Assembly (NCBI RefSeq): GCF_058153355.1
Contig: NZ_CM177019.1
DNA length: 64,000 nt
Reading direction: 5' to 3' (one strand)
Position 1 is the first letter of the stretch. Each line of letters begins with the position of its first letter. The notes beneath the pieces are model-generated. The model did not search any database and had not been told where the DNA came from. It worked only from the letters and a program-made list of their open reading frames with translations. Both the position numbers and the translations under genes were made by a program. Of this stretch, positions 5,820 to 61,765 are shown one piece after another.

Positions 5820-5838
5820 TCATCAGGAGCAGTGAATT

Positions 5839-6112
<274 letters not shown>

Positions 6113-11304: not shown

Positions 11305-11335
11305 GAGATTCCCTTCATCATGCAAATAATTGATA

Positions 11336-11370
11336 TGCAAAAAACCCCGGCCTTATGGACCGGGGTTTTT
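11336..11370 (-). terminator. rrnE operon terminator
   Basis: aaaaaccccggccttatggaccggggttttt hairpin flanked by A/T runs immediately 3' of the 5S gene. Confidence 0.7.
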
Positions 11371-11378
11371 CTAATTTG

Positions 11379-11498
11379 ATGCCTGGCAGTTCCCTACTCT
11401 CGCATGGGGAGGCCCCACACTACCATCGGCGCTACGGCGTTTCACTTCTGAGTTCGGCATGGGGTCAGGTGGGACCACCGCGCTAAGGCCGCCAGGCA
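11379..11498 (-). rRNA. rrfE: 5S ribosomal RNA (rrnE operon)
   Basis: 120-nt match to E. coli 5S rRNA (reverse complement tgcctggcggcc...ctgccaggcat). Confidence 0.95.
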
Positions 11499-11684
11499 AA
11501 TTCCTGTGCTCTGTCCTGTGTCTTTTGTGCTGATACTGCGTTGGCTGCATTCGCGAAAATCAGTCACATACTTCAGTATGCTCCTTCCTTCGCTTCATTT
11601 GCCGCCTTGTCTCAGCGCAAAATCCTTCGGACTCTGGATCCAAGCTGAAATTCTCTCAATCCGCCAAAACACCTTCGGCGTTGT

Positions 11685-14589
<2,905 letters not shown>

Positions 14590-14773
14590 TCACAACCCGA
14601 AGATGTTTCACTTCTGATTGCGAAAATTTGAGAGACTCACGAACAACTTTCATTGTTCAGTGTTTCAATTTTCAGCTTGATCCAGATTTTTAAAGAGCAA
14701 ATATCTTAAACATGACTCGTAAGTCATCTTTAACGATATTAAGGTCGGCGACTTTCACTCACAAACCAGCAAG

Positions 14774-14849
14774 TGGCGTCCCCTAGGGGATTCGAACCCC
14801 TGTTACCGCCGTGAAAGGGCGGTGTCCTGGGCCTCTAGACGAAGGGGAC
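14774..14849 (-). tRNA. gltV: tRNA-Glu (UUC) in 16S-23S spacer
   Basis: Reverse complement gtccccttcgtctagaggcccaggacaccgccctttcacggcggtaacaggggttcgaatcccctaggggacgcca = tRNA-Glu. Confidence 0.95.
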
Positions 14850-14934
14850 GTATCAGTCTGCTTCGCAAGACGCCTTGCTTTTCACTTTCTATCAGACAAT
14901 CTGTGTGAGCACTGCAAAGAACAGTTCTTTAAGG

Positions 14935-16476
<1,542 letters not shown>

Positions 16477-48652: not shown

Positions 48653-49603
48653 ATGAGTATAAAAGAGCAAACGTTAATGACGCCTTACCTACAGTTTGAC
48701 CGCAACCAGTGGGCAGCTCTGCGTGATTCCGTACCTATGACGTTATCGGAAGATGAGATCGCCCGTCTCAAAGGTATTAATGAAGATCTCTCGTTAGAAG
48801 AAGTGGCCGAGATCTATTTACCTCTGTCACGTTTGCTGAACTTCTATATAAGCTCGAATCTGCGCCGTCAGGCAGTTCTGGAACAGTTTCTTGGTACCAA
48901 CGGGCAACGCATTCCTTACATTATCAGTATCGCAGGTAGCGTCGCGGTGGGGAAAAGTACAACCGCCCGTGTATTGCAGGCACTATTAAGCCGTTGGCCG
49001 GAGCATCGTCGTGTTGAGCTGATCACTACAGATGGCTTCCTTCACCCTAATCAGGTGCTGAAAGAACGTGGTCTGATGAAGAAGAAAGGCTTCCCGGAAT
49101 CGTATGATATGCATCGCCTGGTGAAGTTTGTTTCCGATCTCAAATCCGGCGTGCCAAACGTTACGGCACCTGTTTACTCGCATCTTATTTATGATGTGAT
49201 CCCGGATGGAGACAAAACTGTTGTTCAGCCTGATATTTTAATTCTTGAAGGGTTAAATGTCTTACAGAGCGGGATGGATTATCCTCACGATCCACATCAT
49301 GTATTTGTTTCTGATTTTGTCGATTTTTCGATATATGTTGATGCACCAGAAGACTTACTTCAAACGTGGTATATCAACCGTTTCCTGAAATTCCGTGAAG
49401 GGGCTTTTACAGACCCGGATTCCTATTTTCATAACTACGCGAAATTAACTAAAGAAGAAGCGATTAACACTGCCATGACATTGTGGAAAGAGATCAACTG
49501 GCTGAACTTAAAGCAAAATATTCTACCTACTCGTGAGCGCGCCAGTTTAATCCTGACAAAGAGTGCTAATCACGCGGTAGAAGAGGTCAGACTACGCAAA
49601 TAA
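48653..49603 (+). CDS. coaA: pantothenate kinase CoaA (316 aa)
   Basis: ORF 48311..49603; known N-terminus [20 protein letters not shown] starts at 48653; P-loop GSVAVGKST. Confidence 0.95.
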
Positions 49604-49612
49604 TTTAAAGGG

Positions 49613-49624
49613 GAGCTAATGCTC
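49613..49624. repeat. IS4 target-site duplication, left copy (gagctaatgctc)
   Basis: 12-bp exact direct repeat flanking both IS4 ends. Confidence 0.9.
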
Positions 49625-51050
49625 TAATGCCGATCAGTTAAGGATCAGTTGACCGATCCAGTGGCTGTGTAAGAATCCGGAAACGCTCACTTGTTTCCGG
49701 ATTTTTTTATGCACATTGGACAGGCTCTTGATCTGGTATCCCGTTACGATTCTCTGCGTAACCCACTGACTTCTCTGGGGGATTACCTCGACCCCGAACT
49801 CATCTCTCGTTGCCTTGCCGAATCAGGTACTGTAACGCTACGCAAGCGCCGTCTTCCCCTCGAAATGATGGTCTGGTGTATTGTTGGCATGGCGCTTGAG
49901 CGTAAAGAACCTCTTCACCAGATTGTGAATCGCCTGGACATCATGCTGCCGGGCAATCGCCCCTTCGTTGCCCCCAGTGCCGTTATTCAGGCCCGCCAGC
50001 GCCTGGGAAGTGAGGCTGTCCGCCGCGTGTTCACGAAAACAGCGCAGCTCTGGCATAACGCCACGCCGCATCCGCACTGGTGCGGCCTGACCCTGCTGGC
50101 CATCGATGGTGTGTTCTGGCGCACACCGGATACACCAGAGAACGATGCAGCCTTCCCCCGCCAGACACATGCCGGGAACCCGGCGCTCTACCCGCAGGTC
50201 AAAATGGTCTGCCAGATGGAACTGACCAGCCATCTGCTGACGGCTGCAGCCTTCGGCACGATGAAGAACAGCGAAAATGAGCTTGCTGAGCAACTTATAG
50301 AACAAACCGGCGATAACACTCTGACGTTAATGGATAAAGGTTATTACTCACTGGGACTGTTAAATGCCTGGAGCCTGGCGGGAGAACACCGCCACTGGAT
50401 GATACCTCTCAGAAAGGGAGCGCAATATGAAGAGATCAGAAAACTGGGTAAAGGCGATCATCTGGTGAAGCTGAAAACCAGCCCGCAGGCACGAAAAAAG
50501 TGGCCGGGACTGGGAAATGAAGTGACAGCCCGCCTGCTGACCGTGACGCGCAAAGGAAAAGTCTGCCATCTGCTGACGTCGATGACGGACGCCATGCGCT
50601 TCCCCGGAGGAGAAATGGCGGATCTGTACAGTCATCGCTGGGAAATCGAACTGGGATACAGGGAGATAAAACAGACGATGCAACTGAGCAGGCTGACGCT
50701 GAGAAGTAAAAAGCCGGAGCTTGTGGAGCAAGAGCTGTGGGGTGTCTTACTGGCTTATAATCTGGTGAGATATCAGATGATTAAAATGGCGGAACATCTG
50801 AAAGGTTACTGGCCGAATCAACTGAGTTTCTCAGAATCATGCGGAATGGTGATGAGAATGCTGATGACATTGCAGGGCGCTTCACCGGGACGTATACCGG
50901 AGCTGATGCGCGATCTTGCAAGTATGGGACAACTTGTGAAATTACCGACAAGAAGGGAAAGGGCCTTCCCGAGAGTGGTAAAGGAGAGGCCCTGGAAATA
51001 CCCCACAGCCCCGAAAAAGAGCCAGTCAGTTGCTTAACTGACTGGCATTA
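49625..51050 (+). mobile_element. insertion sequence IS4 (1426 bp), complete
   Basis: Imperfect terminal inverted repeats (left taatgccgatcagttaag / right reverse complement taatgccagtcagttaag), single transposase ORF, 12-bp flanking direct repeat; length equals canonical IS4. Confidence 0.93.
49709..51037 (+). CDS. insG: IS4 transposase (442 aa)
   Basis: ORF 49691..51037; product from ATG 49709 [24 protein letters not shown]... recognised as IS4 transposase. Confidence 0.93.
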
Positions 51051-51062
51051 GAGCTAATGCTC
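51051..51062. repeat. IS4 target-site duplication, right copy (gagctaatgctc)
   Basis: 12-bp exact direct repeat flanking both IS4 ends. Confidence 0.9.
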
Positions 51063-51069
51063 CCCTTTC

Positions 51070-52035
51070 TTATTTTTCTGCACTACGCAGGGATATTTCA
51101 CCGCCCATCCAGGGTTTTATTATTCCATCCTGCTCAAGCAATAAAGCGCCTTGTTTGTCTATTCCGCGTGAAATGCCAAATATTTCTTTATCACCAATGA
51201 TAAGTTTCACTGGGCGATTAATAAAATTATCCAGTTTTTCCCAGCGCGACAGATAAGGTGCCAATCCTTCTTGCTCGAAGAGTTCCAGCGCCGCACGTAA
51301 TTCACGTATTAGCATGGCCGCCAACGCATTACGATCGAGATTGATCCCAGCTTCCTGAAGCGTGATCCACCCCTGATTAACGATATTCTCTTCAACACGA
51401 CGCATTGCCATGTTGATCCCGGCACCAATGACTATTTGCGCCGCATCGCCGGTTTTGCCAGTCAGCTCCACAAGAATACCTGCCAGCTTGCGATCCTGCA
51501 GATAGAGGTCATTCGGCCATTTAACACGAACTTTATCAGCGCCCAACTTGCGTAATACTTCCGCCATCACGATACCGATAACCAGACTTAAACCAATCGC
51601 CGCAGCCGGGCCTTGTTCCAGACGCCAGAACATCGACAAATATAAGTTTGCGCCAAAAGGTGAAAACCATTTCCGACCTCGGCGACCACGTCCTGCCTGC
51701 TGGTATTCAGCAACGCAGGCATCACCCGATTTAAGCTCTCCGATACGATCAAGAAGATACTGATTCGTGGAGTCAATAACGGGCAGCACGGCTACACTAC
51801 CGCTATCCAGCTGACTCAATATCTGTTCAGCATTAAGTAACTGGATGGGCTCAGGCAGGCTGTATCCTTTACCCGGAACGGTAAAGACATCAACGCCCCA
51901 GTCACGCAGTGTTTGAATATGTTTATTAATGGCCGCCCGGCTCATTCCTAACGTTTCACCCAGCTGCTCACCAGAGTGAAATTCGCCATTCGCTAATAGC
52001 GTGATTAATTTTAGCGGAACGGTATTATCCTTCAT
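51070..52035 (-). CDS. birA: biotin-protein ligase / biotin operon repressor BirA (321 aa)
   Basis: ORF 51070..52035 minus; N-terminal HTH and GRGRRGR motif. Confidence 0.95.
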
Positions 52036-53060
52036 GAAATCGTCTCCACTGCGCTAACTTCACCTGATGTACCAATAAAGCGAACTTCTGGCTCAAGCCA
52101 GACATTAAATTTTTCACCCACTTTCTGTCTTACATGATGTGCCAGCTGCACAATATCTTCGCTTTTTGCATTGCCTTCATTAATGAGAACTAACGCCTGT
52201 TGACGGTGTACCGCAGCCCCACCAATTTGTGTTCCTTTTAGCTGGCACTGATCGATAAGCCAACCAGCGGCCAGTTTTACTGAACCATCCGTCTGGGGAT
52301 AATTTGGTGCTGTTGGAAATTGTGCCAGTAATGCTTTAGCCGTTTCGGCAGATACAACAGGGTTTTTGAAGAAACTACCGGCATTGCCATTCACTTTTGG
52401 ATCAGGGAGTTTGGTGGTGCGCATATGACACACCGCATCAAATACTTGCTGTGGCGTTACGGTTGTAGGATCCAGACGAGTTAAGTCACCATACGTTAGT
52501 ACAGGTTGCCACTCTTTTGGCAGGCGCAGACCTACGGCTACAATGGCGAAGCGGTCCTGGTATTCATGTTTAAAAATACTGTCGCGATAGCCAAAACGGC
52601 ACTCTTTGGCAGTTAAGCGCACTTGCTTGCCTGTCGCCAGTTCGACACAGTCAACATAAGCGCAAACTCGCTGTAATTCTACGCCATAAGCACCAATATT
52701 CTGGATAGGTGATGAGCCGACACAACCAGGAATTAACGCCAGATTTTCCAGACCTGGCATACCTTCCTGCAAAGTGTATTTTACCAGTCGATGCCAGTTT
52801 TCTCCGGCTCCTACATGTAAATACCACGCATCAGGTTCATCATGAATTTCGATACCTTTGATCCGGTTGATGATCACCGTGCCGCGATAGTCTTCCAGAA
52901 AAAGTACATTACTTCCTTCACCCAGAATAAGAACGGGTTGCCCTTCTGCGGTTGCATGCTGCCAGGCATTGAGTAGTTGTTGTTCGTCTTCGGCACATAC
53001 AATGTGCTGAGCATTATGATCAATGCCAAATGTGTTCCAGGGTTTTAAGGAGTGGTTCAT
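52032..53060 (-). CDS. murB: UDP-N-acetylenolpyruvoylglucosamine reductase MurB (342 aa)
   Basis: ORF 52032..53060 minus; recognised as MurB; 4-bp overlap with birA. Confidence 0.95.
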
Positions 53061-53153
53061 AGCTGCTTTCCTGATGCAAAAACGAGGCTAGTTTACCGTA
53101 TCTGTGGGGGGATGGCTTGTAGTTATGACGACAGGGAGAGTTTGTAGAAACGC

Positions 53154-53180
53154 AAAAAGGCCCAGTCTTCCGACTGGGCC
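53154..53180 (-). terminator. rrnB operon terminator (single hairpin)
   Basis: aaaaaggcccagtcttccgactgggcc: GC stem with A-run on plus strand, 14 nt after the 5S 3' end. Confidence 0.7.
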
Positions 53181-53194
53181 TTCTGCTTAATTTG

Positions 53195-53314
53195 ATGCCT
53201 GGCAGTTCCCTACTCTCGCATGGGGAGACCCCACACTACCATCGGCGCTACGGCGTTTCACTTCTGAGTTCGGCATGGGGTCAGGTGGGACCACCGCGCT
53301 AAGGCCGCCAGGCA
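53195..53314 (-). rRNA. rrfB: 5S ribosomal RNA (rrnB operon)
   Basis: 120-nt match to E. coli 5S rRNA; differs from the rrnE copy at one position (53228 a vs 11412 g). Confidence 0.95.
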
Positions 53315-53500
53315 AATTCCTGTGCTCTGTCCTGTGTCTTTTGTGCTGATACTGCGTTGGCTGCATTCGCGAAAATCAGTCACATACTTCAGTATGCTCC
53401 TTCCTTCGCTTCATTTGCCGCCTTGTCTCAGCGCAAAATCCTTCGGACTCTGGATCCAAGCTGAAATTCTCTCAATCCGCCAAAACACCTTCGGCGTTGT

Positions 53501-56405
<2,905 letters not shown>

Positions 56406-56836: not shown

Positions 56837-58378
<1,542 letters not shown>

Positions 58379-61397: not shown

Positions 61398-61637
61398 TGT
61401 AAAGCATCCACAATAGAAGAAGGATGCCGCAGGCTTCATCAATATTACGCGATGATGAGAACCAGATGCGACGTTAGCCGGCAGGTCTTCGGGCTTGGAG
61501 GGGTATATAAAATACTAAGAGATGATGACTTCCCACCGGATGGCAGTGTCCGCATAACGCAATCATCGCACCTTTCCTTACCGCTGCGCGTCAGCTCCAG
61601 ATTTGCACTGGATTCCCTATTAACTCACAGGACCGGC
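61398..61637 (-). promoter_or_regulatory. cobalamin (B12) riboswitch, btuB 240-nt leader
   Basis: Minus-strand leader begins gccggtcctgtgagttaatagggaatccagtgcaaatctggagctgacgcgcagcggtaaggaaaggtgcg..., matching the btuB leader as I recall it. Confidence 0.85.
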
Positions 61638-61765
61638 GAGTGGATGCTACAGGTTGTAACAAGTTGCTGTCCAGACGTAGCTCACAAATAGGAATACATC
61701 AAGATCTGGACATCTGATGAGCAATCCCTACAATCGCCGCGTACATTTCATTTTCAGGATACATC

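Follow-up and report, generated by a model that had tools for sequence, protein, structure and literature searches.

Dual terminators in Escherichia coli K-12 are found only at the ends of rrnA, rrnB, and rrnD, and the other four rRNA operons have one terminator each (Stenum et al. 2021, PMC8144298). The segment between the two terminators (T1 and T2) of rrnB was described there as rrB, one of the "tRNA-linked repeats", together with an 18-bp repeat; rrB is transcribed through T1 read-through, and its short-lived sRNA binds Hfq and CsrA in vitro (PMC8144298). According to Orosz 1991, as cited in PMC8144298, T1 terminates 87% and T2 about 100% of transcripts. When the K-12 operon ends were compared, rrnA and rrnD consisted of T1, the repeat, and T2, and rrnB was dual as well, whereas rrnG had a single T2 and rrnE a single unrelated hairpin. 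The ends of rrnG and rrnE indicated that single-hairpin ends are normal even in K-12.

We analyzed the end of rrnB in a stretch of 64,000 nucleotides from contig NZ_CM177019.1, hereafter the window. The window was a piece of E. coli chromosome in reversed orientation relative to the K-12 map, and the closest of 5,426 complete E. coli genomes showed 99.6–99.7% identity with it across 13 kb. An Rfam scan detected two complete rrn operons, both on the minus strand: the first comprised 16S (56837–58378), 23S (53501–56405), and 5S (53197–53312) rRNA genes, and the second extended over 11381–16476. Downstream of the first operon, on the same strand, were murB (52032–53060, 342 aa; assigned from the list of open reading frames and the murB annotation in matching genomes) and, beyond it, birA (51070–52035); therefore, the first operon was identified as rrnB and the second as rrnE.

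The terminal 5S rRNA gene of rrnB, rrfB, occupied 53195–53314 of the minus strand when its 120-nt limits were set by homology to K-12 rrfB; the version of Rfam (RF00001, 53197–53312, 93.2 bits) and PGAP was 116 nt long. As the murB ATG was located at 53060 on the minus strand, the intergenic stretch was 53061–53194, or 134 nt, which agreed with the distance given in a preliminary description of this locus, provided that the 120-nt definition of 5S is used. Across the 5S end (slash), the minus strand read ...ctgccaggcat/caaattaagcagaaGGCCCAGTCggaaGACTGGGCCtttttgcgtttctacaaactct..., and in segments it was gggaactgccaggcat / caaattaagcagaa GGCCCAGTC ggaa GACTGGGCC tttttgcgtttctacaaactct..., exactly as quoted in that description. 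An A/U-rich single-stranded linker, CAAAUUAAGCAGAA (53181–53194, minus strand), which matched the left flank of K-12 T2 exactly and whose 3' part was able to pair with the U-tract, led from 5S to a 22-nt hairpin, GGCCCAGUC-GGAA-GACUGGGCC (53159–53180, minus strand). The hairpin lay on the transcribed strand of rrnB, 14 nt after the 3' end of 5S, and had a stem of 9 bp, seven of them G-C pairs, formed by a 5' arm (53172–53180) and a 3' arm (53159–53167) around the GGAA tetraloop (53168–53171). A U-rich tail, UUUUUGCGUUU (53148–53158, minus strand), started at the base after the stem and was identical to the K-12 T2 tail. The remaining 87 nt (53061–53147, minus strand) represented the murB leader or upstream region, with a ATACGGTAAACTA motif conserved across genera; only a few SNPs distinguished the leaders of the three rrnB alleles described below, which indicated that the expression signals of murB itself are untouched by the polymorphism. 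The 22-nt hairpin sequence was present in one copy in the window and was absent from 100 shuffled sequences even when 3 mismatches were allowed. A 71-nt segment folded with −26.8 kcal/mol (z = −4.0; none of 200 shuffled sequences folded as well), and the hairpin core had a ΔG of −18.8 kcal/mol, as compared with −14.7 kcal/mol for K-12 T2 and −15.8 kcal/mol for the core of K-12 rrnB T1.

In K-12 MG1655, the 5S–murB interval was 300 nt, and its alignment with the window left a clean gap in the window over T1 and the T1–T2 interval. The extra K-12 segment was 168 bp, from CAAATAAAAC... to ...AAACTGCCAGGCAT, consisted of T1 and the rrB tRNA-linked repeat/sRNA gene, and was bracketed by the 18-bp direct repeat AACTGCCAGGCATCAAAT, the two K-12 copies of which end 168 bp apart. 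The window had a single copy of AACTGCCAGGCATCAAAT (53190–53207, minus strand), which alignment with K-12 and O104:H4 identified as the empty site for the 168-bp unit; the gene of the RrB sRNA occupies exactly this site in K-12. There was one hairpin terminator in 134 nt where K-12 has two in 300 nt, there was neither a second 18-mer nor the 168-bp unit, and the core CAGTC-GGAA-GACTG was present in place of the T2 stem GGCCATCC-TGAC-GGATGGCC. Because all three features that define the K-12 dual terminator were lacking, the rrnB end of the window was placed outside that class. These results bore out the preliminary description, which had proposed one compact terminator in place of the K-12 T1–T2 tandem, with T2-type flanks, a T1-like stem, and the T1–T2 interval with its repeated 5S end missing; the alignments with MG1655 and other strains also showed that the rrnB of K-12 does not have the single-hairpin arrangement. 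However, the "missing interval" is the known rrB element (PMC8144298), so that the difference is the presence or absence of this element and not a damaged terminator.

The stem core was CAGTCGGAAGACTG in the window, ATCCTGACGGAT in K-12 T2, and CAGTCGAAAGACTG in rrnB T1. The window hairpin shared with K-12 rrnB T2, the terminator of pKK, pTrc, and pBAD vectors, its position relative to murB, a 4-nt loop, and identical left (CAAATTAAGCAGAAGGCC) and right (GGCCTTTTTGCGTTTCTACAAACTCT) flanks. It differed from T2 in its core (CAGTC-GGAA-GACTG as against ATCC-TGAC-GGAT) and in its stem length (9 bp as against 8 bp); moreover, K-12 T2 comes after the rrB repeat, whereas the window hairpin directly follows the real 5S end. 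The hairpin resembled the T1 hairpins: 21 of 22 positions were identical with T1 of K-12 rrnA and rrnD (GGCTCAGTCGGAAGACTGGGCC), which also have the GGAA loop, and 20 of 22 with rrnB T1, where the loop is GAAA. However, the K-12 T1s have long A/U-rich extensions that lengthen the stem (AAAACGAAA...TTTCGTTTT) where the window has T2-type flanks, a U.G where the window hairpin has a C-G pair, and an interrupted U-run, and they are followed by rrB, rrA, or rrF. In overall layout, with 5S, CAAAT, a short A-rich linker, one hairpin, and a T-run, and in the lack of a tRNA-linked repeat, the window resembled K-12 rrnG, K-12 rrnE, and the rrnB of E. coli B; of these, rrnG and the operon of E. coli B have the T2 core and rrnE has an unrelated CCCCGG...CCGGGG hairpin, neither of which is the core of the window. 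The features of a single 5S-distal rrn terminator were all found in the window, namely a 5S end, a CAAAT-type linker, one hairpin, TTTT(T)GCG, and no repeated 5S end. The window hairpin belongs to the rrn 5S-distal intrinsic terminators, a well-known family. A permissive Rfam search of 52900–53520 and of the K-12 locus returned only 5S, 23S, and chance-level matches, and no terminator or rrB family. The rrnE hairpin of K-12 was also present in the window, downstream of 11381; at this rrnE end (11330–11380, minus strand), a single hairpin different from that of rrnB, AAAAACCCCGGUCCAUAAGGCCGGGGUUUUUU, lay directly upstream of yjaA in a layout identical to that of K-12 rrnE.

The hairpin had the properties of an intrinsic terminator: a G+C-rich stem-loop with a GNRA-type loop, five U directly after the stem, a location at the end of the transcription unit on the transcribed strand, and covariation among related sequences. 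On the evidence as a whole, we put at roughly 0.88 the probability that the window carries an allele of the E. coli rrnB terminus that lacks rrB and in which one canonical intrinsic (Rho-independent) terminator with T2 flanks and a T1-class core stands straight after 5S. On the model of intrinsic termination, and by comparison with K-12 T2 and its identical flanks, RNA polymerase that has passed 5S would terminate in the U-tract at about 53150–53158. The primary transcript of rrnB would end about 45 nt after 5S, and murB-birA would be insulated from the very strong rrn promoters. A consensus promoter and terminator scan of 52500–53700 returned no terminator site and left the window hairpin unflagged. 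Since the hairpin and the U-run are plain in the sequence, this was treated as a limitation of the tool; the miss was likely due to greedy stem extension through AGAA/UUUU (A-U and G.U) pairs, which consumes the T-run.

RNase E usually cleaves 3' of 5S where an A/U-rich linker precedes a stem-loop. The linker and hairpin of the window probably supply this 3' context for 5S maturation, and the hairpin might be mainly a processing or stability element for 5S/9S RNA, with termination taking place elsewhere, for example by Rho. We considered so restricted a role very improbable, because a stem directly followed by five U is the defining signature of an intrinsic terminator and because the U-run was nearly invariant across genera while the stem covaried. 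The homologous T2 of K-12, with identical flanks, stops about 100% of transcripts in the figures of Orosz 1991 that PMC8144298 cites. The roles in processing and termination are not mutually exclusive, and termination in the U-tract remained the preferred reading of the hairpin.

Alignment of the rrnB–murB region resolved three classes of alleles in E. coli. Class A, the tandem T1-rrB-T2, was found in K-12, O104:H4, SE11, and H10407; class B, in which 5S is followed by the exact T2, in E. coli B/NEBExpress, with ATCC 8739 giving the same match length and identity. Class C had a T1-class core set in T2-type flanks directly after 5S; it was shared by the window, O157:H7, O145:H28, Nissle 1917, and numerous other strains. 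To count class A, the internal sequence of rrB was tried and dropped, as the element also occurs at rrnA, rrnD, and other sites; instead, we used a junction query (TLR + T2 + murB leader), of which only class A covers at least 80%. By this query, 2,521 of the 5,426 complete E. coli genomes (46%) had the tandem at rrnB. The class C hairpin together with the murB leader was present in at least 2,134 genomes (39%), including O157:H7 and Nissle 1917; this lower bound was obtained with a query that requires both the C-type stem and the leader. The exact T2 alone (class B) accounted for about 12–14%, including E. coli B; the count from the 45-nt T2 query was approximate, since the T2 of rrnG and rrnA also matches over 84% of its length, and the identity classes were consistent with about 12%. 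The spread of identity classes agreed with the allele census, although the genome collection is heavily biased in its sampling and the megablast word size may miss variants. The result that the K-12 tandem is a minority state at rrnB, and that the allele of the window is one of the two major ones, was robust. It followed that the feature is ordinary, because more than half of the sequenced E. coli end rrnB with a single terminator.

The internal 121 nt of the rrB/rrA/rrF repeat matched by megablast in 3,974 of the 5,426 genomes, at 1–10 places in each, and the operon location of the repeat differed between strains. The remaining 1,452 genomes gave no match, which suggested, within the sensitivity of megablast, that approximately 27% lack the published sRNA gene at every operon. 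This, together with the absence of the element at rrnB in over half of the genomes, is awkward for a conserved function of the sRNA. The 168-bp unit of T1 and rrB varies in its presence from strain to strain and from operon to operon.

To extend the comparison beyond E. coli, a degenerate pattern of the MurB N-terminus was used to collect 69 species representatives of Enterobacteriaceae, sampled as exact pattern matches, in 43 of which the contig extended to the 5S end upstream of murB. A single 5S end was found upstream of murB in 39 of the 43 species, 112–259 nt from the ATG. The other four, Kluyvera genomosp. 3, Klebsiella indica, Enterobacter sp. CC120223-11, and Raoultella ornithinolytica, had a repeated 5S end and an rrB-like unit. 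The preliminary description had taken K-12 as the norm; neither the E. coli counts nor these related species supported that premise. The hairpin nearest murB was of the T2 class (ATCC/GTCC...GGAT/GGAC) in 31 species, of the T1 class (CAGTC...GACTG) in 4, and of another type in 8; E. albertii and Phytobacter massiliensis, whose contigs begin inside the linker, also belonged to the T1 class. The rrnB–murB region of E. albertii (GGCCCGGTC-GAAA-GACCGGGCC, or CCCGGTC-GAAA-GACCGGG) and of E. whittamii (GGCTCAGTC-GAAA-GACTGAGCC) had a single hairpin of the CAGTC/GACTG class with T2-type flanks and a downstream murB leader as in the window, but differed from it by one or two compensated pair changes and by the GAAA loop. 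In Kosakonia oryzendophytica, a 22-mer identical to the window hairpin was found, and the window-type core also occurred at rrnB–murB in Kosakonia and Phytobacter and in single rrnA terminators of other strains. In Enterobacter sp. JUb54, Kosakonia sacchari, and K. arachidis, 5S and murB were separated by two hairpin terminators, and there was no second 5S end. The pair consisted either of T1-class and T2-class hairpins with a short degenerate spacer between them, or of a T2-class hairpin and an unrelated second terminator. This indicated that dual terminators at rrnB–murB arose in more than one way.

In an RNAalifold consensus of 35 Enterobacteriaceae sequences, comprising the E. coli alleles and those of other genera, 7 of 11 pairs were changed on both sides, and TTTT(T)GCG after the hairpin was almost invariant across genera. 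Judged from these alignments, the covariation provides good evidence for selection on the hairpin structure.

The preliminary description had also called the window sequence an alternative or recombined allele. The first term was correct; the second is plausible in view of the combinations of core and downstream SNPs found among strains. The class C core was found on a "CTC...A" downstream haplotype in the window, O157:H7, O145:H28, and DA33137, and on a "CTT...T" haplotype in A21, THO-003, AVS0366, and EC5654. The T2 core was found on "CTT...T" in K-12 and B, and on "CTC...A", the O157-type flank, in strain 27_141091, which shares its MurB accession with O157:H7. That all four combinations of core and SNPs exist is consistent with short-patch gene conversion between the ends of rrn operons, and the mosaic of flanks and core may thus have arisen by repeated events of this kind involving the 3' ends of all seven operons. 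A C-type single terminator was also found at rrnA, beside mobB, in strain CRE287.

The allele might alternatively be a derived deletion, in which a K-12-like tandem ancestor lost T1 and rrB by recombination among its repeated 5S ends, T1, and T2, leaving a chimeric hairpin. The bracketing of the 168-bp unit by an 18-bp direct repeat would favor such an event, and the B allele is the exact product of excision, or of non-insertion, between the 18-bp repeats, so that the rrnB of E. coli B exactly matches the expected excision product. The window hairpin does join a T1-class core with T2 flanks, and the alleles of O145:H28 and DA33137 have left flanks closer to T1. However, a single crossover would yield a T1 left flank and a T2 right flank, and in the window the T1-class core is flanked on either side by T2-type sequence; the C allele therefore cannot be made by one T1 × T2 crossover, and the window would require additional conversion events. 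A simple crossover of this kind was rejected as the sole origin by the T2-type left flank. E. albertii and E. whittamii also have a single hairpin of this class with T2-type flanks, and the repeat is lacking in 39 of the 43 related species, which makes it no less likely that the single terminator came first than that the tandem did. We therefore regarded a derived deletion as rather unlikely. The age of the core itself gave mixed signals, the T2 type being commoner in other genera (31 of 43 species) and the window type being present in two sister species of Escherichia.

Since the region holds repeats common to several rrn operons, a repeated 5S end and similar hairpins could in principle have collapsed T1 and rrB out of the assembly. 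Such a collapse would have left the K-12 T2 stem in place and not a different, longer stem. A 316-nt sequence identical to that of the window was present in an independent complete genome, the allele class was represented by over 2,000 complete genomes, of which many came from long reads, and the same arrangement was found in the sister species. The chance of an assembly artefact is negligible in the light of the independent genome and of the more than 2,000 others, and it was rejected; the single terminator of the window was treated as a genuine allele.

The feature of the window is an ordinary intrinsic terminator allele and was already known, in that its sequence has been public since the first O157:H7 genomes and its architecture has been described for other operons. 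Apart from PMC8144298, a literature search yielded no relevant paper on how the rrnB terminator varies between strains, and the hairpin string was not found in any text searchable in full. The absence of rrB at the population level is only a mildly new angle. The textbook and vector "rrnB T1–T2" belongs to K-12 and its relatives and not to E. coli as a species, and one hairpin would be enough to end rrnB in most strains and most related genera. Lineages without rrB at rrnB have a more stable single hairpin (−18.8 vs −14.7 kcal/mol). It is tempting, but somewhat doubtful, to view the tRNA-linked repeat/sRNA gene rrB as a dispensable, recombinationally mobile cassette; strains without rrB would then be natural knock-outs of RrA/B/F, and the dual terminator of K-12 would be a side effect of the insertion of the cassette rather than a fail-safe by design. 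The importance of the polymorphism is little for biology and some for practice, where it is relevant to the design of K-12-based probes, primers, and annotation rules and to studies of the RrA/B/F sRNAs.

Several other features of the window were recorded. The 23S–5S spacer was 188 nt in both operons (53313–53500 and 11497–11684) as against 92–95 nt in K-12 and in Z0117EC0005, a strain that is otherwise almost identical; the long form was found in only 368 of the 5,426 complete E. coli genomes. Rfam also matched a btuB cobalamin riboswitch at 61463–61652 and three tandem copies of naRNA4, a REP-derived nucleoid-associated RNA, at 5838–6098 on the minus strand. Between the convergent 3' ends of coaA (48653–49603, plus strand) and birA (51070–52035, minus strand), there was an insertion sequence of the IS4 family (49613–51062), which had an open reading frame of 448 aa (49691–51037, plus strand) matching Nterm_IS4 and DDE_Tnp_1, terminal inverted repeats of approximately 18 bp, and a 12-bp target duplication, GAGCTAATGCTC, at 49613–49624 and 51051–51062. 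This element was absent in all of the 40 closest E. coli genomes, which had approximately 28 nt at that site.
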